Below the pieces are notes generated by a model. That model ran no database searches. It saw only the letters and a program-made list of their open reading frames with translations, and had not been told where the DNA came from. Below are positions 19,191-64,000 of a stretch of DNA of 64,000 bases, in pieces. The DNA lies in IMG/VR virus record IMGVR_UViG_2974521131_000001, positions 19,725 through 83,724 of that record; one strand, given 5' to 3'. Numbering within the stretch: the stretch's first letter is position 1; each line of letters opens with the position of its first letter. Source of the stretch: a virus (lineage: Duplodnaviria > Caudoviricetes). The position numbers and the translations under genes are program-made.

Positions 19191-19202
19191 GTGATTACAG
19201 GA
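19191..19202 (+). repeat. GTGATTACAGGA motif copy 1
   Basis: Exact match. Confidence 0.8.
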
Positions 19203-52783: not shown

Positions 52784-53085
52784 TTGGATCCCTTTTCTTT
52801 CGTGATGTTGACCAGCGTCTTGCTGGTCCGATGAACCGTCTTGACCCGCCACGGGTAGACGGCTACGAACTTCTCGCCCTGGCCATCGAGACGGCCACCG
52901 ACGAAGGTGAGGACAGTCGGCCTGCCCTCATGGAGAGGCTTCTGGGCGTACTGGAACCGGTAGCGGCCCCGCTTACCCTCGAGGCTCACCTCAGTGCCAG
53001 GCACCAGGTGCGAGCGACCGGGAATGTGGAACTCGTAGACCCGGCGCTCGTCCTGCTTGGGCTTGACCCGGCGCTTGGTGTTCAC
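52780..53085 (-). CDS. Hypothetical protein
   Basis: L.PGTEV...G.RGRYRF motif. Confidence 0.65.
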   Translation of the reverse strand: MNTKRRVKPKQDERRVYEFHIPGRSHLVPGTEVSLEGKRGRYRFQYAQKPLHEGRPTVLTFVGGRLDGQGEKFVAVYPWRVKTVHRTSKTLVNITKEKGSK

Positions 53086-54023: not shown

Positions 54024-54084
54024 CTGAACACAGCAGAAAGCTGCCGGATCGAATATGGACCCGGCAGCTTTCCTCCCTGCTCAG
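54024..54084 (-). repeat. Intergenic hairpin element E1
   Basis: CTGAAC ACAGCA [stem] CTCC CT GCTCAG (+ strand). Confidence 0.85.
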
Positions 54085-54432
54085 TTACTCGACGGTGACT
54101 TCTTGCCCGTTGTAACCCATGTGGTGCAGCTGGATGTCGAAGCTGCCCTGAAGGTTGCTGCGAGCGAACTCCTCGAAGTCCTCCCTGATCTTCGCCTGAT
54201 CATCAGGGTCGATCCCGAAGTCACGCGCCCAGGCATCCAAGTCAAGGCCGGTCACCTTGACTGTGAACGCGAAATCATCCTGGCCCACCAGCTTGAGCCT
54301 CGGATCATTCTCGCGGTCGAAGACCCCGACCCGGCCATGGTCGAACTGCACCCTGACAGAGTCGTCAACCACGAGGTCGACGTAGCCCTGGTTTCCGTCA
54401 TGTGACACACGGTCACCCCTGTTGAGCTTCAT
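54085..54432 (-). CDS. Hypothetical protein
   Basis: ATGA overlap; stop abuts E1. Confidence 0.65.
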   Translation of the reverse strand: MKLNRGDRVSHDGNQGYVDLVVDDSVRVQFDHGRVGVFDRENDPRLKLVGQDDFAFTVKVTGLDLDAWARDFGIDPDDQAKIREDFEEFARSNLQGSFDIQLHHMGYNGQEVTVE

Positions 54433-54704
54433 TCCCCGACCACCTCGTTGATGTTGACGAACCCCACAATGCCCCCACCAGGGACCACGTAGGCAGCCGA
54501 CAGTGTGTCGGGTGAGCCATGGCCGTAGCTCTGGACCACGTTGGCCATGTTGAGGATCTTCTCGCCGGTCATCTTGCGCGAGAGAGCGTCCAGCGTGGTG
54601 CGGGCGATCTCCATATCGGCTACGCGCTCCGTGTACCGGTAGGTGCCCTCGTTGGTCTTGGTGGCCTCAGAATCAGTGACCACTACCAGCTCGATGTCGT
54701 ACAT
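54429..54704 (-). CDS. Hypothetical protein
   Basis: Extended RBS variant. Confidence 0.65.
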   Translation of the reverse strand: MYDIELVVVTDSEATKTNEGTYRYTERVADMEIARTTLDALSRKMTGEKILNMANVVQSYGHGSPDTLSAAYVVPGGGIVGFVNINEVVGE

Positions 54705-54788
54705 AATTTCCCTTCTGCCGTGTGTGTGTGATACTGGGAAAGGAGACCGATCCTAGATGCGAGTACACCTAGGATCGGCCCCTCGGGA

Positions 54789-54878
54789 CTACCTACGGTA
54801 GTGGTTGACCAACTGAACGGTCGCCCACATTGAAGGTGGAACCGCGAGGAGCAGGGCGATGGCTTGCCAAACTGACAT
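54789..54878 (-). CDS. 29-aa membrane peptide
   Basis: Read manually; AGGAG RBS; MSVWQAIALLLAVPPSMW. Confidence 0.5.
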   Translation of the reverse strand: MSVWQAIALLLAVPPSMWATVQLVNHYRR

Positions 54879-54932
54879 CGTCCTGTCTCCTTTCCTCCTC
54901 GCCCCACGGACCTTCCGTGGTGGCATCTCTGC

Positions 54933-54989
54933 GTGAACAGAGCAGAAGCCCACCAGCGCCTATGTCTGGTGGGCTTCCTCCCGGCTCAG
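54933..54989 (-). repeat. Intergenic hairpin element E2
   Basis: GTGAAC AGAGCA [GAAGCCCACCAG/CTGGTGGGCTTC] CTCC CG GCTCAG; contains upstream TGA. Confidence 0.85.
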
Positions 54990-55174
54990 CTTTCTAGCCG
55001 ATCAACCTTGTCGTCGCAGCGCTTGCAGATCGGCACCTTCCCGAGTATCGGGTGGTCACGTAGCCCGTTGGCATGGTTCCCGCATCTGGCGAACCACTGG
55101 CACAGCGCCTCATAGTCGGGGTCATCCTCGTGACCGACGGGGTAGACCCGTGCAGCCGTGTCTAATCCGGCCAT
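54986..55174 (-). CDS. Small Cys/His-rich protein
   Basis: CQWFARC..HP..ICKRC. Confidence 0.6.
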   Translation of the reverse strand: MAGLDTAARVYPVGHEDDPDYEALCQWFARCGNHANGLRDHPILGKVPICKRCDDKVDRLES

Positions 55175-55371
55175 TCCGTATTCCCTTCTCGGGTGTCCTC
55201 CGAATCGTCCAGGATCTCAGCGCCACCCATGGAGTCGATGTCCCTGATGCGCGCCTCTACATCCCGTAGATCCAGCATGTATAGCCCAGGAAACCCCACC
55301 CGCGTGATCATGCCCCGCAGAGTGTCGGCGTACTTCTGTGCCTCGTCGCGGGTCAGGTCATCGACATACAC
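55162..55371 (-). CDS. Hypothetical protein
   Basis: GTG next to upstream stop. Confidence 0.5.
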   Translation of the reverse strand: MYVDDLTRDEAQKYADTLRGMITRVGFPGLYMLDLRDVEARIRDIDSMGGAEILDDSEDTREGNTEWPD

Positions 55372-55372
55372 G

Positions 55373-55654
55373 TCACAGCTCCCTGTTGGCGTTCCACACG
55401 TCGCACACAGCCTGGGCATAGCTCGCCCCAGCTTCCGTGCGGTCGCTCAGCTCGTCCTTCTGCTCTTCGGTCAGCTGACCGTTGATCACGTTCCGCAGCG
55501 CCTCGTTTTCACGCTCCAGCTGCTGGATCTTGTCGTACTTCTCCCGCTCGAAGACGAGGCTCATCACCTCCATCTCTTCGGGATCGTGGGGATCGAAGTC
55601 GATTCCGGCCACCCAGCCGTCCCCCTGGACGTATCCGTCCTCGGTATATGGCAT
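55373..55654 (-). CDS. Hypothetical protein
   Basis: Extended RBS variant. Confidence 0.65.
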   Translation of the reverse strand: MPYTEDGYVQGDGWVAGIDFDPHDPEEMEVMSLVFEREKYDKIQQLERENEALRNVINGQLTEEQKDELSDRTEAGASYAQAVCDVWNANREL

Positions 55655-55684
55655 AGCTCTACTTCCCTTCTTCGTGTTGTGCTG

Positions 55685-55738
55685 CTGAGTACAGCAGAGC
55701 GTCAACAGCTCTCGCTGCTGGCGCTCCTCCTTACTCAG
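55685..55738 (-). repeat. Intergenic hairpin element E3
   Basis: CTGAGT ACAGCA [stem] CTCC TT ACTCAG. Confidence 0.85.
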
Positions 55739-55949
55739 TCGCCTTCTTGTATTGCCGCAGCGATACTGTCGCATCGATCCCCGACAATTTCAGCTGATGC
55801 TGGACCATCTCGAGGATGGTTTGCCGGATGTCGGATCGAGCACCACGCCTACCGACTGTTCCATAGTCGGCTGCGTAAGAGTCCAGATCAATCCGAACAA
55901 CCAGCGGCACCGGCACCTCATCTAGCGGTTTGGCTGGCTTACCTCTCAC
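55731..55949 (-). CDS. Hypothetical protein
   Basis: GTG start at 55949; stop inside E3. Confidence 0.55.
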   Translation of the reverse strand: MRGKPAKPLDEVPVPLVVRIDLDSYAADYGTVGRRGARSDIRQTILEMVQHQLKLSGIDATVSLRQYKKATE

Positions 55950-56196
55950 TCGCAGCCCGCCCGGTCGCGAAGTACAGCGGCCAGTCGACCAGCTCGCGGA
56001 CCAGATCGGCCACCTTGGACGCGGGGATCTCGAGCGGGTCTCCCACGTCCACAGTGTGGCCGTAGTCGAGCGTGCGCCCGTTGTCTGACTCCCTGGTGAT
56101 GCGTTCGGTCTTCTGGATACTGAGACCCTCGAGGGTGCCGTCAGCGTTCTCCAGTGGCCGCACATCGTATTTGGTGATCTTGCGATCCTGTGCCAT
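55939..56196 (-). CDS. Hypothetical protein
   Basis: Extended RBS variant. Confidence 0.65.
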   Translation of the reverse strand: MAQDRKITKYDVRPLENADGTLEGLSIQKTERITRESDNGRTLDYGHTVDVGDPLEIPASKVADLVRELVDWPLYFATGRAASER

Positions 56197-56219
56197 CTCA
56201 TTCCCTTCTGTGTGTGCTC

Positions 56220-56275
56220 CTGAATAGAGCAGAGCGCCAACAGGATTGCTCCTGCTGACGCTCCTCCATATTCAG
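56220..56275 (-). repeat. Intergenic hairpin element E4
   Basis: CTGAAT AGAGCA [stem] CTCC AT ATTCAG. Confidence 0.85.
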
Positions 56276-56279
56276 ACGC

Positions 56280-56360
56280 TCAGCCCCGTTTCAACAGGGC
56301 CTGTATGCCAGCGCAGAACAGCGCCAGCAACGCGGCCAAGACCCACATGGCACCGCTCAC
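56280..56360 (-). CDS. 26-aa membrane peptide
   Basis: Read manually; GGAGG RBS; GTGA overlap. Confidence 0.45.
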   Translation of the reverse strand: MSGAMWVLAALLALFCAGIQALLKRG

Positions 56361-56854
56361 GCGTAGACCTCCTCAGGCCTACTGGCGATGGTGTGGGCCA
56401 GCCCAGCGAGCATGCACGGGTTCATGTAGGCACGGTGAGCCAGCACAGCTGCCTCGCGCCCGGTCTCGTACCCGCGATTGCACGCGGCCACCTCGAACCC
56501 GTCGGCCTGGTCGGTGTGGACGGATCCCAGCCAGCTCTCAGGCCACAGGATTGCCGTCTCCCAGTAGTCCATGTGTCCACCGAAGTACTTGGTGGACACC
56601 ACGACATCGCCGACACCCTCGAGTGTCACTGTGTCCTTGAACCACACAGGCATCACGATGACGGTCACGGGGACCACGACACCGCCGATTCTGGACGCGG
56701 CCCACAGTCGCTGCGTGAGCTTGTGGATCGTGTCCACGATGCCGGGAATCAGCCGGTCATCATCGATGGCATCGCCGAGCATGCCTGGCACATCAGCCAA
56801 TTCGTCTGCGATGTCGTAGACATCCCAGCGCTGCACATTCTTGGTGTTCTCCAT
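56357..56854 (-). CDS. Hypothetical protein
   Basis: Exact extended RBS. Confidence 0.65.
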   Translation of the reverse strand: MENTKNVQRWDVYDIADELADVPGMLGDAIDDDRLIPGIVDTIHKLTQRLWAASRIGGVVVPVTVIVMPVWFKDTVTLEGVGDVVVSTKYFGGHMDYWETAILWPESWLGSVHTDQADGFEVAACNRGYETGREAAVLAHRAYMNPCMLAGLAHTIASRPEEVYA

Positions 56855-56949
56855 GTTTCTTCCCTTCTCCGTGTAGGTGTCCGTTCGGCCACCAAGAAAG
56901 GGCACCACAGTTGCCTGTGATGCCCTCCCCAAGCTGCCGACCAGCTTTG

Positions 56950-58023
56950 TTACGCGCCAACCAATTCCGGCATCTCCAGCACCTGCGACAGAGCCGACAG
57001 GGTCGCCCCGTCAGATGCCGCGAAGTCGCCACGGATGGCACGGTCGTACACACGCTCCAGACGAGACGTGCCACGCACAGCCTTGCCGTGGTGCTCGTAG
57101 GTGCTCACCGCCTGCAGGACACCAAACGCGGTGCCGTCGAACGGTGCGCTCATCGGATCCGTGGTGAAGTAGTGGTCCAGCTGTTCCCGACGGTTCTCGG
57201 TCTTGGTGACCTTCGCCTTCGAGCTGTCAGCCGGTGCAGGCGGCTCGATGATGTCCATCACCTTCAGCTGCTGCTTACGACTCACCGGGATCGAGGCCAG
57301 CATCCGCGTGAAGTCCTGCATCTCATGCGCAGACTTGTCCAGGATGGACAGAGCCTCACGCACGCCAGCCAAATGCACGCTGTTCATGCTGTTCACGGTG
57401 TGCTTGACCTTGTACTGACGACCGGACGCCTTCGCCTCAGCCTGAATACCCTGAAACATGTTGTCGCAGATCAGCAGTCGGTTGAATGCCGAGTACGTCG
57501 TTGCGATGGACCCATCCAGGGAGGTCTGAGCCAACAGGAAGGGCCAGAACTCCAGCCCCGTCTTGTCGTCGTGCATGGTCTCATCCAGGCCGATCTCGAC
57601 AGCCGCCTGTGCGCCGTTCTTGAGCGTCAGTGCGGAGAGAATCGAGAGTCGATCCTGAAGGATGTTGCTCACGTTGCGGATCAGCCACGTCTTGTAGTCG
57701 TGGATCTGGTATCCCTTGCCGTGACGACCGAGTTCGGAGTAGTCATCAGACCGGACGATGCCCTGAGCACCTTCCGTGATGGTGTACCGGGCCGGTCGCC
57801 CGTCGGGCAGGATGATCACGCCGGGGTCGCCGATCTCATCGACGCCTACCGGGATGAAGTTGCCCGTGGGGACACTCATGGCGTGCCAGTCGAACAGCTG
57901 CCGTTCCACCTCAGCGACCGGGATCGGTCCCTCGTAGGTGGGCAGGGTGCCGTCCGTCTTGCCGATCCAGGTTCCACGCTTGGACGTGTTGCCGATCAGT
58001 GCGTGAGCGGTACGAGTTCCCAT
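56950..58023 (-). CDS. DUF932/TIGR03299 phage-plasmid protein
   Basis: LFDW, G.GYQIH.Y, L.NGA, PFLLA.TS.DGS.AT, ICDN, KHT. Confidence 0.82.
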   Translation of the reverse strand: MGTRTAHALIGNTSKRGTWIGKTDGTLPTYEGPIPVAEVERQLFDWHAMSVPTGNFIPVGVDEIGDPGVIILPDGRPARYTITEGAQGIVRSDDYSELGRHGKGYQIHDYKTWLIRNVSNILQDRLSILSALTLKNGAQAAVEIGLDETMHDDKTGLEFWPFLLAQTSLDGSIATTYSAFNRLLICDNMFQGIQAEAKASGRQYKVKHTVNSMNSVHLAGVREALSILDKSAHEMQDFTRMLASIPVSRKQQLKVMDIIEPPAPADSSKAKVTKTENRREQLDHYFTTDPMSAPFDGTAFGVLQAVSTYEHHGKAVRGTSRLERVYDRAIRGDFAASDGATLSALSQVLEMPELVGA

Positions 58024-58073
58024 GTTCTTATTCCCTTCTCCAGTGTTACCCGTTCGTGTAACGGGCATCTGTA

Positions 58074-58136
58074 CTGAGTACAGCAGGGACCACACAGTGA
58101 TTACAGGAAACACTGTGTGACCCCCTCCCTACTCAG
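58074..58136 (-). repeat. Intergenic hairpin element E5 (loop carries GTGATTACAGGA copy 10 at 58097-58108)
   Basis: CTGAGT ACAGCA [stem] CTCC CT ACTCAG; contains upstream TGA. Confidence 0.88.
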
Positions 58137-58540
58137 ATGTAGGCCTTACCGTCGGGAGCGAGGTCGACCAGATCAGCCGATTCCACGGGCGCACCCGTGT
58201 AACCCAGCGTGAAAGTGCCTGCCTCGTAAGGGTTATAGCGGGCCTGAGTGCCCGGTAGAACGTCCTTGATACGCGGGTCATCGATATGCACCATGGTGCC
58301 GATCACGCCCGCGTGAACATTCTTACGGCGCTCACGGATAACCCGCTGACGCCCACCTTCCCGAACGGTGAACTTGGCATCGATCAACACCACGCCGTCA
58401 GCGTGGCCGATAACCTTGCCCTTGTTCTCACCCTCCCGTGCCACGAGAGACCACTGGTCACGGTGCAGGTTGCGGTATGCGAACACCTGCTGACCGGGGT
58501 CAATGTTGCGGCCCTGGTAAGAGTGAATTTCATAAGCCAT
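58133..58540 (-). CDS. Conserved phage hypothetical protein
   Basis: AYRNLH..WS, VIGH, R.RV.RE..KNVHA.V.G, YNPY. Confidence 0.75.
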   Translation of the reverse strand: MAYEIHSYQGRNIDPGQQVFAYRNLHRDQWSLVAREGENKGKVIGHADGVVLIDAKFTVREGGRQRVIRERRKNVHAGVIGTMVHIDDPRIKDVLPGTQARYNPYEAGTFTLGYTGAPVESADLVDLAPDGKAYI

Positions 58541-58570
58541 CGTTCTAATCCCTTCTCCGTGTGAGCGGTG

Positions 58571-58627
58571 CTGAGAACACCAGCAGGACAACAGGTCTCG
58601 CGAACTGTTGCCCTGAGTCACTCTCAG
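58571..58627 (-). repeat. Intergenic hairpin element E6 (variant)
   Basis: CTGAGA..CAGCA [stem]..TCTCAG; contains upstream TGA. Confidence 0.65.
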
Positions 58628-58896
58628 CGTGCGTAGTTGTCGATCAATCCCCGTTCGACTTCAGCGGGAGCGAGGCATTCCCCAGCCTCACTGAACAGCC
58701 GGAAGATGACAGCCGGATCCGACATTGGGTAGACCACCCGAATGAGTGCCGTCACGAGATTGGCGGCGTGATCGTAGGGTGTGATCGGATAATCCGCGTA
58801 GTCGATGGACTGGCCTGCCACGCGGGCATCATCTGCAGATGCCATGGCCCAGTAGGTAGTCCACGCCTGCTCCAGAAGGTCAGCGTTCTGCGACAT
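58624..58896 (-). CDS. Hypothetical protein
   Basis: TAATG overlap. Confidence 0.6.
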   Translation of the reverse strand: MSQNADLLEQAWTTYWAMASADDARVAGQSIDYADYPITPYDHAANLVTALIRVVYPMSDPAVIFRLFSEAGECLAPAEVERGLIDNYAR

Positions 58897-59024
58897 TAGA
58901 GCTCACCGCCCCGGCGCAGCTGCTGACGTACGGCACGACGGTCGGCACGCTTGAGTTGACGACGACCACCGAGACGGCGCTCACCATGTACCCCCAGCAT
59001 TGGACCGTGATTCGAAACGACCAT
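58896..59024 (-). CDS. 42-aa Arg-rich peptide
   Basis: Read manually; exact extended RBS. Confidence 0.55.
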   Translation of the reverse strand: MVVSNHGPMLGVHGERRLGGRRQLKRADRRAVRQQLRRGGEL

Positions 59025-59059
59025 TTGAATTCCCTTCTCCGTGTGTATTTTTCAGCTGC

Positions 59060-59117
59060 CTACAGACAGCAGAGAGCCCCCAGACCCGTAGACCTGGGGG
59101 CTCTCCTCCGTGTGTAG
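59060..59117 (-). repeat. Intergenic hairpin element E7
   Basis: CTACAG ACAGCA [GAGAGCCCCCAG/CTGGGGGCTCTC] CTCC GT GTGTAG. Confidence 0.85.
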
Positions 59118-59123
59118 TTCTGG

Positions 59124-59354
59124 CTACTCAGCCCGTAGCTGGCTGATCTCGTAACCCTCCATATCGCCGATCTCGTCGTCATAGTTCGACGGATTCGACC
59201 GCCAATCGCTGCGCAGACGTTGACCAAACGCGTTGTAGCACGCGCCACACTCGCAGTCCACGTCACCTTGCCCACGGAATCGCTGAACAGTTGCGCCGCA
59301 CTGACCACAGGGCCAGCTCGAGCTACCGTCGTCGTGCCGTGTTACCTCAGCCAT
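59124..59354 (-). CDS. Small Zn-ribbon protein
   Basis: CGQCG..CECGACYN; exact extended RBS. Confidence 0.65.
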   Translation of the reverse strand: MAEVTRHDDGSSSWPCGQCGATVQRFRGQGDVDCECGACYNAFGQRLRSDWRSNPSNYDDEIGDMEGYEISQLRAE

Positions 59355-59383
59355 GGTTAGGTATCCCTTCTCCGTGTGCTGGT

Positions 59384-59439
59384 CTGAATTGACCAGGGCA
59401 GACACTGACCATAGCCAGCGCATGCCCCTACCGATTCAG
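59384..59439 (-). repeat. Intergenic hairpin element E8 (GTAG subtype)
   Basis: CTGAAT TGACCA [stem] CTAC CG ATTCAG. Confidence 0.8.
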
Positions 59440-59660
59440 GTATGAGCAACAATCCTGTACTCCGTCGAGATGGTCTCACCGGGGCGTGACAACACCGCGA
59501 ACAACACGGTGCCATCCTCGCTGAGACTGGTCGACCAGCCGCCGTCGCCATACGTCCATGCGATATGACGCAGCTGCCTACCGGCATCATCGCGGGTCAG
59601 TAGCGGGTACGGCGTAACAGTCTCACCGGTAGCCCGCTTATGCGTGATGTCATAGAGCAT
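59436..59660 (-). CDS. Hypothetical protein
   Basis: Exact extended RBS; stop inside E8. Confidence 0.6.
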   Translation of the reverse strand: MLYDITHKRATGETVTPYPLLTRDDAGRQLRHIAWTYGDGGWSTSLSEDGTVLFAVLSRPGETISTEYRIVAHT

Positions 59661-59685
59661 TGTGTTTCCCTTCTCCGTGTGAGGT

Positions 59686-59739
59686 CTGAATTGACCAGAA
59701 GGCACACCTATTGCTAGATGTGCCCCCCTACCGATTCAG
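59686..59739 (-). repeat. Intergenic hairpin element E9 (GTAG subtype)
   Basis: Outer parts identical to E8. Confidence 0.8.
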
Positions 59740-60443
59740 GCCACCGGCTGGAATTTCCGCGCCGATACTCCGTGAACTTCAATGCTGATAGACGCGCTGC
59801 GCCCATTGCCATTACCGCCGCACTGCATGCAGGTGATGCACTGCACCGTTTCGCGAACAGTGGCAGGGCATTCCACCAGGCCTACAGGTTTTGGTGCGCC
59901 CAGTGGACGGGGGACAAATCCACGCCACCCTGCTTTGCGTGCATCACGGTAATCCTGGACGGAATCACAGGACGCCATGCACAGCTGAGAGAAACGCGGG
60001 TCAGCCTTACGCCACTGGTGTGTGTATCCCGTGACCCCGTCGGACGCGTCAGCAATTGCTTGCCACACATCGAACGGTGCCGCTACCGGGTCACCATAGG
60101 CACCGATTCGCAGCTTGCGACCGGCGAAAGCAGACAGATCCAGCGGGAGGACGTTGCCACGTTCCCATGCACGCCACACAGCGGTAGGCGTACGGGGGTT
60201 GACGTAGCAGACGCCATTACCGCCAGACGCCACGCTACGAAAAGGGCAATCGCCGCACACGGCGGTGTCCTGCCCTTCATAGATTGCGACATTCGGCGGC
60301 ATATCTGCCCGCAGAATCCACGTCTGAACCATGTTGCCCGTTTTGCGGTTCTTCGACTTGACAGACGCCAACACCACAATGGGAGTGACGCCGTCAACCA
60401 TCGAGATACCTTGCCAAACAAGCATGGTTTGGTACTGAGACAT
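59736..60443 (-). CDS. Cys-rich conserved phage protein (GP88/radical-SAM-like suggested)
   Basis: N.KTG.MVQT.I, CGDCP..CYV, R.G.YGDP, GYTHQW, CPA..C..C..C. Confidence 0.65.
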   Translation of the reverse strand: MSQYQTMLVWQGISMVDGVTPIVVLASVKSKNRKTGNMVQTWILRADMPPNVAIYEGQDTAVCGDCPFRSVASGGNGVCYVNPRTPTAVWRAWERGNVLPLDLSAFAGRKLRIGAYGDPVAAPFDVWQAIADASDGVTGYTHQWRKADPRFSQLCMASCDSVQDYRDARKAGWRGFVPRPLGAPKPVGLVECPATVRETVQCITCMQCGGNGNGRSASISIEVHGVSARKFQPVA

Positions 60444-60472
60444 TGGTTGTTCCCTTCTCCGTGTGTGTTGTG

Positions 60473-60530
60473 CTGAAGACAGCAAAAACCCCCTAGATCG
60501 AGTGACCTAGGGGGTTTTCTCCGTGTTCAG
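60473..60530 (-). repeat. Intergenic hairpin element E10
   Basis: CTGAAG ACAGCA [AAAACCCCCTAG/CTAGGGGGTTTT] CTCC GT GTTCAG. Confidence 0.85.
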
Positions 60531-60535
60531 AACCG

Positions 60536-60997
60536 CTACAAATTCCAGGGCTCAGTGGTGAATTCCGACAGTCTCGGATTCTTGCCCCGACGGGCGTAGT
60601 CAGCCTGATTCACCAGTAGTTGCACCTGTTCAGTGCGACCGGCGAACAACACGCCCACCTTGCCCTCAGGGACATCCTGTTGCCCGGCACCCCATGCCGC
60701 GATAACGAACATCTCACCGGCATCGAGAGCCGACTCGATAGCGTCAGCCTCAGCTTGAGCAGCCTTAGCAGGTGCCTCGCACTTGTCATGCATGTGCTTA
60801 CCCCCGCGTGACGCATAGCAGCTGGCACACAGTGCCGGGGCGATGCAGTACGGGAGACGTTGCCGCACATTGCAACGGAGAGTGTCATCCAACACTGTGT
60901 GTGGACACTTACGCCGTGCAACACGGACGCCGTCAGCCGACGTTTTGCCGCACTTATCGCAGCAGAGACGACCGGCGTAATCGTAGCTATATCCCAT
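60536..60997 (-). CDS. Cys-rich hypothetical protein
   Basis: Exact extended RBS. Confidence 0.65.
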   Translation of the reverse strand: MGYSYDYAGRLCCDKCGKTSADGVRVARRKCPHTVLDDTLRCNVRQRLPYCIAPALCASCYASRGGKHMHDKCEAPAKAAQAEADAIESALDAGEMFVIAAWGAGQQDVPEGKVGVLFAGRTEQVQLLVNQADYARRGKNPRLSEFTTEPWNL

Positions 60998-61027
60998 GAT
61001 TCCGTTCCCTTCTCCGTGTGTACTGCC

Positions 61028-61085
61028 GTGACGACAGCAAAGGGCACCTAGACCATGTGACCTAGGTGCCCTTCTCCGTATTCAC
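61028..61085 (-). repeat. Intergenic hairpin element E11
   Basis: GTGACG ACAGCA [AAGGGCACCTAG/CTAGGTGCCCTT] CTCC GT ATTCAC. Confidence 0.85.
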
Positions 61086-61094
61086 GTGTTGCTG

Positions 61095-61148
61095 CTAGAT
61101 ACAGCAGGGACCACACTGGCAAGCCAGCGTGACCCCCTCCCTATCTAG
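61095..61148 (-). repeat. Intergenic hairpin element E12
   Basis: CTAGAT ACAGCA [stem] CTCC CT ATCTAG; contains upstream TAG. Confidence 0.85.
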
Positions 61149-61480
61149 TCAAGTTCTGCAGGATCGATCGACAGGATCGACAGTTCATCACTGTTTTCCT
61201 CAGCCCATTCCCCGACGTGTTCGGGGAAGAGGTCGGAGTTCTCACCGCCCCCGTAGCTGCGAGACTCAGCGCATGCACTGAGAAACGAGAACAGGGAACG
61301 TGATGCATCTGCCACGTCTGCCTCAGCACTGCAGCCCGACCGAATGTCGTTACCGACGTACTGCCAGTCTGGCGTGGTGATGATGTACGTGTACCGCTGC
61401 CGGTAGGCACGAAAATCGGGGTCAAAATCCTGCCCGTCGTGCTCCACCTTGACAGTTGCGTCACCAATGGTGAATTCCAT
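61145..61480 (-). CDS. Hypothetical protein
   Basis: Exact extended RBS; stop inside E12. Confidence 0.65.
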   Translation of the reverse strand: MEFTIGDATVKVEHDGQDFDPDFRAYRQRYTYIITTPDWQYVGNDIRSGCSAEADVADASRSLFSFLSACAESRSYGGGENSDLFPEHVGEWAEENSDELSILSIDPAELD

Positions 61481-61508
61481 GTTTCTGCCCTTCTCCGTGT
61501 GTTGTGTT

Positions 61509-61562
61509 CTAGGTACAGCAGAGACAGCACTAGTTGCCCAGTGCAATCTCCTCCCCACCTAG
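61509..61562 (-). repeat. Intergenic hairpin element E13
   Basis: CTAGGT ACAGCA [stem] CTCC CC ACCTAG. Confidence 0.85.
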
Positions 61563-61723
61563 CCACGTTTTGCCGCGTGGTAAGCCATGAGAGCGGCATC
61601 GATGTCCCGATAGCTGGCCATCTCAGCCAGCTCACGAATCGGATCAGTCGCGATACCACCACCTAGCTCACACGTCGCAGCGTGCGGCAATGTGCTGTCA
61701 TATGCAGTCAAGCAATCGCACAT
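61559..61723 (-). CDS. Hypothetical protein
   Basis: Exact extended RBS; stop inside E13. Confidence 0.6.
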   Translation of the reverse strand: MCDCLTAYDSTLPHAATCELGGGIATDPIRELAEMASYRDIDAALMAYHAAKRG

Positions 61724-61757
61724 GGTTGTGTCCCTTCTCCGTGTGATGTGTGTGCAT

Positions 61758-61810
61758 CTAGGCACAGCAGGGAATGCATAGACGCGCTATGTATCCCCCT
61801 CCCTGTCTAG
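61758..61810 (-). repeat. Intergenic hairpin element E14
   Basis: CTAGGC ACAGCA [stem] CTCC CT GTCTAG. Confidence 0.85.
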
Positions 61811-61979: not shown

Positions 61980-62258
61980 CTACACCGCTACCCGACGCAA
62001 ACCACCACGACGACCGACGCCGTAGCGCACCATTGGGTAGTCGTGGAAGTTCATCCCGTCGGAGCAATCGCAACCATCGTGCGGATACAGATCCATGACG
62101 CCGTAATCGGAGTACTCAGAATCTTCTGAGAACTCAGTGGTCAGATACGGGTTATCCACCACCTCGCGACGGAAAAAATCTACCGCCGCACCCATGGTGG
62201 GGAACGTCTCGTGACCATTGGTGAACGGGCCATAGTTGATATGCGCGCAAACCTGCAT
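61980..62258 (-). CDS. Hypothetical protein (first recognisable gene of the leftward array)
   Basis: ACACATAGGAGA RBS variant. Confidence 0.6.
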   Translation of the reverse strand: MQVCAHINYGPFTNGHETFPTMGAAVDFFRREVVDNPYLTTEFSEDSEYSDYGVMDLYPHDGCDCSDGMNFHDYPMVRYGVGRRGGLRRVAV

Positions 62259-62259
62259 T

Positions 62260-64000
62260 GTTCCATCTCCTATGTGTGAGATATGTGCAGGTCAGACGAC
62301 CAGCACCCTTCAGAACACATAGACTCGCTATGTACTCTGAAGGGTGCCCTTAGGGAGAGAAGATTGACATCTAGTCTCTCTAAGGACACCCCCACACTTG
62401 GAATAGGAGAAAAGAGAGTGATCCTCAGTACGCCACGAATTAATCGGCTCACCTGCACCGTGTGAGGTATGCAGGGCTAGCGAAACGTGACCCTATGCCT
62501 TACGCCCCCGTATTCCACCTAGGTGCCTACCGCCTGTAGGTCTACCCGTGTTAGTTCCGTCTGTTGAATGTCACGCGGTTCAAGTCACGCGCGAGTGATA
62601 CCAGCCCAATCGGGGGAGGATCGATGGCCATCTAGATAGGCGATTGCAGGTGCCGAAAAACATGCACCACGCCCATTACCGCGACCATCACACTATGGAG
62701 TTCTCAAGCAACATTTAAGGACACCGACGCAGCCGTCAGCAGTCCCGCACGCCCTCGCGGGCCATGCGATTAACGGGTAAAACTCCTTTCAGAAGACAGT
62801 GTTATGTAGGACCGGTGAGGCCCTCTTTCGAGGAACTCGCTGGCCGAACAAGAACGAAGTTACGCCCTGGTGCCCAGCAACGCAATAGACCCCCCTAGAT
62901 GTGGGGTACTTAAACGGGTCTGGCGGGTAGGCTGACCTGCATAGATACCCGTATATGTGACGTGCATCACATAGGTGATTTGAGGGTCTACAGCAAACGT
63001 ACGCTGACCTGGTCAAATACAGGTTGACCAGCTCAGCATGGGTACTTAGCAGGGTCTAACAAATATCGGGGTCAGCAAACGGTAATTCGTCTGAATATCG
63101 CTCTGACCTGCATAAAAAATAGTTTCAGCTACCTATCTAACTATGTGGTTTGGACGCAATCCGCGGGAGCGACCCAGCAAACGCCGGCTGAGGCACGAAA
63201 ACCTAGGTTGACCTGGTGTTATGGGAATTTTCAGCTAAGTTTTCGGCCTGAACTCGGATTTTTGATATGCGTACCCGTGCATAAGTGCAGGTCAGCGCGG
63301 TATCGGTCGCATAAGTGCAGGTAGATTGATTTTCCTAGGTGACGTACTACGCACGGTAGTAGGGAATTCTGTTTGCTGGCAAACCCGTGTTGGTCTAGAC
63401 CAGAAAACAGAATCTGCTGGTCAGACGGATATGGCCCGTGCCAGCTGTACCTAGATGGGGTCGAATCGTCCCGATATGGCAAGGGTCAGCTACTGCATAA
63501 CGTGCTGGTCAGAGCGCTAGCAAACACGTGATTCTGCAGGTGATTGCGTGGGATATGGGGATATGCGTAGGTAAGGCTTACCTAAGGGATAAGTGCCCTT
63601 AGTCCTCCCAGTGCATGCGTATGTGGGGACACTCGACAGGATGGGCCATTGCTACCCCCTGAGAGCCACGTGTAGGCACGCGCTAGGTGGGTCTGGATAG
63701 ATCGGATAGGTAGCGCTATCCCGATCGCTCACAGGGCCACACAGACCCGATACATACCGATATATCGGTAGTGCATGCACGTGATACACCATGCTCACGG
63801 GTCTAGTCAAGGCCTACTGACCAGTAACATATGAGGTTACTCACCAGTAACGTAAGCCATACTGTTGCCCTATCAGTACCGCATAAGTTACCCACGAGTA
63901 ACCAAACATGTGTTCCGCACAGCTGACCTGGGGAAACCATATCCCATGGGACGGGTGGGGGGTATCCCGACCAGCCACGATGGCCGGACACCCCATGCAA
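62260..64000. promoter_or_regulatory. Non-coding, palindrome- and repeat-rich region
   Basis: No ORF with phage-like GC3; lower GC; multiple (C/T)TGACC(T/A)G copies. Confidence 0.55.

Follow-up and report, generated by a model that had tools for sequence, protein, structure and literature searches.

In a complete phage genome of 83,724 bp (IMG/VR record IMGVR_UViG_2974521131_000001), the cistrons of an operon of small leftward genes at the right end are separated by an array of 16 hairpins, E1 to E16, and compensatory change has preserved the pairing of these hairpins in the coding-strand RNA. The window, meaning the whole 64,000-nt stretch that was analyzed, spans bases 19,725–83,724 of that genome, and the array lies on the minus (mRNA) strand at window positions 54,024–61,810. 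In sequence comparisons the stretch is ~90% identical to Mycobacterium phages Aziz, MrMagoo, and Estes (genus Reyvirus), with Bongo, PegLeg, Reindeer, and Nanosmite as more distant matches, which places the phage, on this measure, among the Cluster M mycobacteriophages; it is taken here to be Rey itself (genus Reyvirus). Cluster M phages were already reported to carry stem-loops upstream of the repeats CR3/CR4 (Pope et al. 2014, J Virol 88:2461, as cited in PMC7953290). As that work is represented in the citing paper, the elements have been known since 2014 in the same phage cluster, and what is left to learn is their function rather than their existence. By analogy, the hairpins are read here as processing or stabilizing elements of the kind found in the early region of phage T7, an assignment to which we give a probability of about 0.45.

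The elements share a layered architecture. A 7-bp outer stem, mostly CUGAnnn/nnnUCAG or CUAGnnn/nnnCUAG, is surmounted by a 1×1 mismatch, two base pairs (G·U and G–C), and a 1×1 A·G mismatch, after which a further G·U pair starts a variable inner stem of 13–16 bp with a loop mostly of 4 nt. The core reads GGAG on the 5′ strand and UGCUG on the 3′ strand; in a GGUAG/CUGGUC subtype (E6 and E7), one extra base on each side turns the A·G mismatch into a 2×2 mismatch. Minimum free energies run from −27 to −46 kcal/mol across the elements, and the helix, at 19–27 bp with two internal mismatches, fits a two-turn double-stranded RNA substrate. Each hairpin opens a module in which a CA-rich linker of 10–25 nt leads to an extended ribosome-binding site (RBS) repeat, ACGGAGAAGGGA, with the start codon 5–9 nt further on. 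Allowing up to two mismatches, the repeat has 14 copies on the minus strand of the array region (one in the 5′ arm of E4 and one in E16), and the whole window gives 24 matches, compared with 6.0 ± 2.2 in shuffled sequences. All intergenic gaps longer than ~20 nt in the block contain a hairpin, the remaining junctions being overlaps or an 11-nt spacer. An earlier examination of the sequence alone (hereafter the original prediction) had described 14 or more stop-coupled hairpins, usually followed by the extended RBS and the next start, and both points agree with the 16 elements counted here. Its layered stem with a conserved motif is likewise real, while the outer stem measures 7 rather than 6 bp and the inner stem 13–16 bp rather than 12–14.

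Covariation was examined with a covariance model built from 15 of the 16 Rey hairpins. The model recovers 15 (E15, which lacks the outer stem, is seen by folding only) on the sense strand at 29.9–66.4 bits and none elsewhere in the 83.7-kb genome, where the only other matches are generic and partial (18.6 bits in the genome search; 15.8 bits, E = 0.04, in a looser search of the window). RNAalifold found compensatory changes in 15 of 18 pairs among the 15 copies. Searching Rey and seven relatives with the model retrieved 89 sense-strand copies at 37.9–67.9 bits, with antisense matches at 31 bits or less. Across the 66 distinct copies from the eight phages that formed the covariation set, pairing is kept in 93.8% of cells, and both sides have changed in 19 of the 22 pairs. 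The covariation score comes, as an upper bound, to 0.62; slid registers score at most 0.18 and shuffles 0.205, with none of 500 shuffles matching the real value. One of the two G·U pairs is invariant (66/66) and the other almost so (62/66). Mean folding energy is −35.3 kcal/mol for the sense strand versus −25.1 kcal/mol for the antisense strand, the sense fold being the more stable in 65 of 66 copies, and tetraloops (n = 44) are enriched in GNRA (21), with three UNCG and one CUUG. Compensatory change, invariant G·U pairs, strand asymmetry, and GNRA/UNCG loops all point to a structure in the coding-strand RNA and give good support for a function at that level. The original prediction had pointed in this direction, stating that stem sequences differ while pairing is kept and that A·C mismatches on the plus strand become G·U pairs in the mRNA; the figures above substantiate both statements.

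The copies are tightly confined. Whole-genome counts are 15 plus E15 in Rey, 12 in Bongo, 11 in Nanosmite, and 13 in Reindeer, in each case restricted to the sense strand and to the intercistronic gaps of a single operon; in Rey they occupy 73.7–81.5 kb of the genome on the minus strand, and they are likewise confined in the other three. Searches of Rfam at E values up to 1 returned chance matches only, far under the family thresholds.

Stop codons are integrated into the outer stem. The stop of the upstream gene lies inside the 5′ outer arm in nine Rey elements and 0–6 nt before it in five, the exceptions being E11, whose stop ends 13 nt before, and E4, which follows no gene, much as the original prediction had it (within or up to ~6 nt before nearly all elements). 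Among the 89 copies, the stop begins at +1 in 54, at +5 in six, and at −3 to −29 in the others; the stop thus falls within the outer arm in 60 copies, and all but one of the others have it at most 16 nt upstream. Because CUGA is retained even where the actual stop sits upstream, the stop is regarded as a built-in part of the element. The covariation of the outer arm with the stop that had been noticed earlier (CUGA/UCAG versus CUAG/CUAG) is genuine and amounts to ordinary stem covariation that takes in the stop. Measured across the hairpin base, 21–37 nt separate the stop from the next RBS in most copies.

A second, weaker fold covaries too. The 3′ motif pairs with the first bases past the outer stem (CUGCUG with CAGCAG, UGGUC with GACCA, and UGCUC with GAGCA), forming a small hairpin of about −7 kcal/mol with the outer 3′ arm as its loop. 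Among distinct copies, CUGGUC is followed by ACC in 8 of 8 and CUGCUC by AGC in 5 of 8. With their own flanks the copies average −7.0 kcal/mol, versus −4.8 ± 0.2 kcal/mol when flanks are swapped, and none of 300 permutations reaches the real value. This fold would be able to form only with the lower main helix open, whether through a terminating ribosome or after a cut.

Comparison with relatives shows the modules at the borders of exchanged genes, as the original prediction had envisaged for gene gain and loss. Homology blocks between Rey and its relatives begin at hairpin starts and end 20–37 nt past hairpins, and closer pairs behave alike. The same inner stem is found with a different upstream gene in at least four events and with a different downstream gene in at least seven, so exchange occurs on both sides of the hairpin. 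One event could be resolved exactly: GenevaB15 is without 3.3 kb (eight genes) of Aziz, and the junction lies inside 19 identical nucleotides of the RBS repeat, for which reason the modules are viewed as homology hubs and not as attC sites. Inserted genes in Aziz and Estes come with a CR3 copy of their own (PMC7953290). The E3–E4 tandem pair is a remnant of such an exchange event; the ortholog of E4 is the hairpin after Aziz gene 169. Among the relatives compared, breaks scatter on both sides of the hairpin, and none of its positions stood out as a fixed crossover point. The simplest account of the homology-hub role is that it follows incidentally from repetition, with a contribution from the general selection that favors breaks at gene borders.

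The element family reaches beyond the phages closest to Rey. Arrays were also found by model search in ~80-kb IMG/VR contigs, one of which is 81–86% identical to the M. abscessus prophages prophiT49-2, prophiGD54-2, and prophi86-1; prophiT49-2 belongs to Cluster MabI (PMC9934374). The MabI-type core, GGCA/UGGUG, has its middle pair changed from G–C to C–G with the flanking G·U and A·G unchanged. Three copies with a UUCG loop and a GGAG/UGCUG core are present in a 58-kb metagenome contig of ~70% G+C without a known close relative, and because this high-GC uncultivated phage carries the same core, the family is taken to extend beyond mycobacteriophages. Sites in the high-GC uncultivated phage are at L010:916–4166 and L030:2290–3504 (IMG/VR metagenome contigs of 58 and 56 kb). 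Pattern scanning of IMG/VR viral contigs was informative only after filtering with the covariance model, and a pattern scan of bacterial genomes proved uninformative (at least 120 single matches across unrelated phyla, about the chance expectation).

From the observed RNA structure, strand, conservation, position, and presence at exchange junctions, we infer cleavage, an enzyme, and an effect on stability along the following lines. The module would form part of a polycistronic early transcript in which a near-perfect long hairpin closes over the end of one cistron, while an unstructured CA-rich linker and a strong, fixed Shine–Dalgarno (SD) repeat would serve the next. Host RNase III or another nuclease would cut at or beside the weak core (G·U, G–C, A·G, G·U); the leftover helix would then shield the upstream message from exonucleases at its 3′ end, and the small second hairpin, made of the 3′ motif and its flank, may cap the downstream message at its 5′ end. 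Being repeated ~15 times, the modules also double as short homologies for the gain, loss, or swap of single genes. In substrates of E. coli RNase III, base pairing with a preference for G–C is found at the two positions that separate the staggered cuts (PMC6212723), and the conserved 2-bp island of the Rey core resembles these positions. A phage-encoded RNase III was not found in the complete genome, and the presence of the same element in different phage lineages favors a host-supplied factor.

Several points weigh against this assignment. The Rey model applied to the T7 early region gives noise (6.9 bits or less) and no match at the R sites, so the likeness to T7 is one of analogy only; RNase III-type sites, one of the options in the original prediction, would fit best by anatomy and find no counterpart at the level of the model. 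The strict G·U (never G–C) and the built-in UGA/UAG exceed the needs of a plain protective hairpin and may be a sign that a specific protein or the ribosome is involved. The preference at the cut positions is that of the E. coli enzyme, from which mycobacterial RNase III may differ. Finally, the alignment is fitted to the model and the copies are related, which makes the covariation figures upper bounds inflated by shared descent, although the gap between the score and its controls is still large.

Other readings have the ribosome or a specific protein engage the element. In the first, which takes up another option of the original prediction, a ribosome terminating at the stop inside the 5′ outer arm would melt the lower helix and let the 3′ motif refold with its flank, coupling termination to initiation, or to stalling and rescue. 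The position of the stops, the CUGA kept where it is not the stop, the closeness of stop and next RBS across the hairpin base, and an alternative fold that covaries with the subtype of the 3′ motif would all suit such a device, as would the tmRNA that the phage encodes. It is nevertheless judged unlikely: the 3′ arm, freed of the 5′ arm, pairs with the downstream SD no more than shuffled arms do, the second hairpin leaves the SD untouched, and overlapping stop/start junctions in the same operon manage without any such device. The lower stem of T7 R0.5 also contains a stop, so stop placement is not diagnostic. A switch that sequesters the SD was rejected, as segments from the 3′ arm through the start, folded without the 5′ arm, have the same energies and SD pairing as shuffled arms. 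Less likely again is a more elaborate scheme, a ribosome-driven two-state switch that would decide, for each cistron, whether its junction is cut, protected, or reinitiated and would constitute a modular gene-cassette grammar common to Cluster M phages, the MabI prophages of M. abscessus, and one or more uncultivated high-GC phages. Much the same standing is given to RNA binding sites at which a phage or host protein (translational repressor, chaperone, or antiterminator) would read the G·U/G–C/A·G/G·U core. Here the invariance of both G·U partners counts in favor, together with an A·G that is kept in all subtypes while the intervening pair swaps between G–C and C–G, a pattern of recognized shape and not of stability alone. 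However, among the ten biggest genes within and beside the array, a Pfam and PHROGs scan found no RNA-binding domain, and all ten fall into families of unknown function, DUF932 and L5 gp82-like among them; the occurrence of the element in unrelated-looking contigs favors a host factor; and RNase III would itself be such a reader.

Transcription and recombination offer two further explanations. Strong, GC-rich hairpins, a 3′ strand enriched in pyrimidines and U past the inner stem (UCUGCUGU), and the UUUUU of E5 would all suit U-poor weak terminators, pause sites, or Rho-loading barriers that grade expression along the operon. Set against this, the 8 nt after the hairpin contain a mean of 0.58 T (maximum 3), and fifteen efficient serial terminators would silence the distal genes; because the outer stem sits downstream of any U stretch and covaries, the read-through RNA is taken as the selected form. 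Intrinsic (Rho-independent) terminators are rejected, since a terminator scan flags none of the 16 elements and there is no U tract, and transcription signals in the wider sense are considered very improbable. Least credible is a primary role as DNA-level recombination sites, attC- or REP-like, that move single-gene cassettes. The homology blocks bounded by modules, the shared inner stems with different neighbors, the tandem E3 and E4, and the insertions carrying their own CR3 copy are what such sites would produce. Yet the complete genome has neither a tyrosine recombinase (PF00589, for which 14 of 14 control genomes give matches) nor a RAYT/Y1 transposase (PF01797), the one exactly resolved event joins in the RBS repeat and not in the hairpin, GNRA/UNCG loops and invariant G·U pairs suit RNA, and phage mosaics in general break at gene boundaries. 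The cassette-shuffling option of the original prediction, attC-like sites or homology hubs, is therefore half right: it holds for hubs at which single genes are swapped and fails for attC-like sites. A selenocysteine or readthrough signal was dropped: the stops include UGA, UAG, and UAA, and reading of the sequence, without a formal test, gave no conserved in-frame extension.

Table 1. Coordinates (window numbering) of the hairpin array, its elements, and the start-linked RBS repeats
Feature	Position	Strand	Description	Basis
Whole array	54024..61810	-	16 intercistronic modules (hairpin, CA-rich linker, extended RBS)	Folding + covariance model
E1	61758..61810	-	CUAG outer stem; stop TAG at +1	52.3 bits
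E2	61509..61562	-	CUAG outer stem; GCAA loop; stop TAG at +1	54.1 bits
E3	61095..61148	-	CUUG loop; stop TAG at +5	60.8 bits
E4	61027..61086	-	Directly after E3, no intervening gene; full RBS repeat in 5′ arm	62.5 bits
E5	60473..60530	-	5′ arm ACGGAGAA; stop TAG 5 nt before	66.3 bits
E6	59686..59739	-	GGUAG/CUGGUC subtype; GCAA loop; stop TGA at +1	51.9 bits
E7	59384..59439	-	GGUAG/CUGGUC subtype; stop TGA at +1	56.7 bits
E8	59060..59117	-	CUAC/GUAG outer stem; UACG loop; stop TAG 6 nt before	66.4 bits
E9	58571..58627	-	Variant; stop TGA at +1	29.9 bits
E10	58074..58136	-	11-nt loop carrying separate repeat CCTGTAATCA; stop TGA at +1	60.8 bits
E11	56886..56940	-	Variant (UUCUUGG 3′ motif); GCAA loop; stop TAA 13 nt before	37.9 bits
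E12	56220..56275	-	GCAA loop; CUGCUC 3′ motif; stop TGA 4 nt before	58.6 bits
E13	55685..55738	-	GAGA loop; stop TAA at +5	58.4 bits
E14	54933..54989	-	Stop TGA at +1; extra small hairpin before RBS	47.6 bits
E15	54740..54784	-	Degenerate 20-bp hairpin without outer stem; stop TAG 4 nt before	Folding only; missed by model
E16	54024..54084	-	Last of array; stop TAA ends directly before	66.1 bits
Extended RBS repeat ACGGAGAAGGGA, example copy	59667..59678	-		Motif scan
Further start-linked ACGGAGAAGGGA copies	Begin at 61731, 61487, 61006, 60451, 59364, 59031	-	5–9 nt before start	
Further start-linked ACGGAGAAGGGA copies	Begin at 58549, 58032, 56861, 56202, 55664, 55182	-	5–9 nt before start	

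Several elements have features of their own. In E4, E5, and E8 the 5′ arm is ACGGAGAA/ACGGAGGA, that is, the beginning of the RBS repeat, and a mini-ORF (open reading frame), ATG GTC TAG, stands at the tip of E4; GGAG is common to the hairpin core and the RBS repeat. These are hints that the hairpins arose from, or recombine with, RBS copies. The 10-mer CCTGTAATCA in the E10 loop (58098–58107, minus strand) has 12 sites at up to one mismatch versus 2.25 expected, others including those at 19192, 19433, 19689, 30504, 32154, 37153, and 53343, and orthologous E10 loops in relatives retain CCTGTAAT; the 10-mer may be another Cluster M repeat (CR1/CR2) or a promoter-like box within the hairpin upstream of the largest gene (DUF932). 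Extra small hairpins (e.g., GCCCGTTACACGAACGGGT) lie on the minus strand at 58040–58062 and 54890–54925, between E10 or E14 and the next RBS, and lengthen the linkers after these two elements to 50–56 nt.

The surroundings of the array were also surveyed. Between window positions 53000 and 64000 there are no sigma-70-type promoter matches in 11 kb, compared with 4.9 ± 3.1 in shuffles, which is consistent with one long early transcript or with noncanonical promoters. Two strong hairpins, with arms of 23 and 20 nt and complementarities of 83% and 90%, stand at positions 62303–62391 (minus strand), a short way before the leftward operon's first gene (start at 62258); they overlap by 6 nt, which makes them partly exclusive, and a leader or attenuator structure is possible. 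The right genome end (62260–64000) comprises ~1.7 kb without a convincing ORF and contains short repeats such as CTGACCTGCACTTATGC (twice near 63,270–63,300) and ATGCAGGTCAG along with an inverted repeat with 38-nt arms at 63,827–63,911. The window further encodes 21 tRNA genes and a tmRNA. In Cluster M relatives, a small release-factor-like protein with an RF-1 domain is annotated beside the integrase region (Reindeer gp131, L007:13205–13357), a further translation-rescue gene alongside the tmRNA and the tRNA set.

The array presents a clean, natural grammar for a modular operon (stop in hairpin, linker, fixed RBS) that is kept by selection on RNA shape, and its repeats explain the shuffling of single early genes among these phages. 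Signals for mRNA processing are poorly known in mycobacteria. Should the elements be RNase III sites, the invariant core would give a first sequence-and-shape rule for the mycobacterial enzyme, and the modules would be ready-made insulator parts for synthetic mycobacterial operons.

Among known systems, the RNase III signals of T7 offer the closest anatomical parallel to the favored reading. The early sites R0.3, R0.5, R1, R1.1, and R1.3 were folded from the T7 record at positions that we take to be those of Dunn and Studier. Like the Rey elements, they are intercistronic in an early polycistronic transcript and two-tiered, combining a conserved internal motif with a variable tip that often has a GCAA loop; the lower stem of R0.5 holds the upstream stop, and the SD and start lie 20–35 nt downstream. 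The T7 signals differ in having an open asymmetric loop, whereas the Rey helices are longer and nearly perfect, with 1×1 mismatches, and in folding at about −22 kcal/mol versus −35 kcal/mol for the GC-rich Rey hairpins. The Rey host, moreover, is an actinobacterium, cleavage in Rey is putative, and neither sequence nor model matches between the two.

Integron attC sites resemble the Rey elements as imperfect inverted repeats with a variable center, placed between promoterless single-gene cassettes and folding better on one strand. Rey differs in having no integron integrase or tyrosine recombinase and no R/L core sites, in the mapped junction lying in the RBS repeat, and in the presence of RNA-type tetraloops. 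REP/BIME sequences are repeated extragenic palindromes that occur just past enterobacterial stop codons and stabilize upstream mRNA, and their repetition near stops is shared with the Rey elements. They are spread over the whole chromosome, measure ~35 nt, bear GTAG at a foot outside the palindrome, and are moved by RAYT; the Rey G(G/U)AG, in contrast, lies inside the helix, the copies sit in one operon of a phage genome, and there is no RAYT. Work by Liang, Rudd and Deutscher (2015) reportedly found that REPs can stall terminating ribosomes if less than ~15 nt from the stop.

Nearer to Rey in host, the start-associated sequences (SAS) and extended SAS (ESAS) of Cluster K are likewise mycobacteriophage RBS-linked repeats with an upstream inverted repeat. 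They stand before many starts, and the inverted repeat precedes about half of them with a variable spacer (PMC3203893). The ESAS arms are conserved 17-bp sequences, and mRNA hairpins were given little support there because departures are uncompensated (PMC3203893), whereas the inner arms of Rey vary freely with compensation; the 13-bp SAS consensus is also unlike the Rey RBS repeat. The stem-loops and CR3/CR4 repeats of Cluster M itself, so far as the citing paper describes them, likewise lie between many genes of the rightmost, leftward-transcribed region and combine a stem-loop with a short conserved repeat that follows it directly and precedes the start; inserted genes there supply their own copy of the repeat, as reported in PMC7953290. 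Beyond that paper's account of Pope et al. (2014), and as far as can be told from it, the present analysis contributes a quantification of the covariation, the invariant G·U/A·G core, the placement of the stop within the stem, the second fold, and the occurrence in MabI-type prophages of M. abscessus, and it adds as well a recombination junction resolved to the base.

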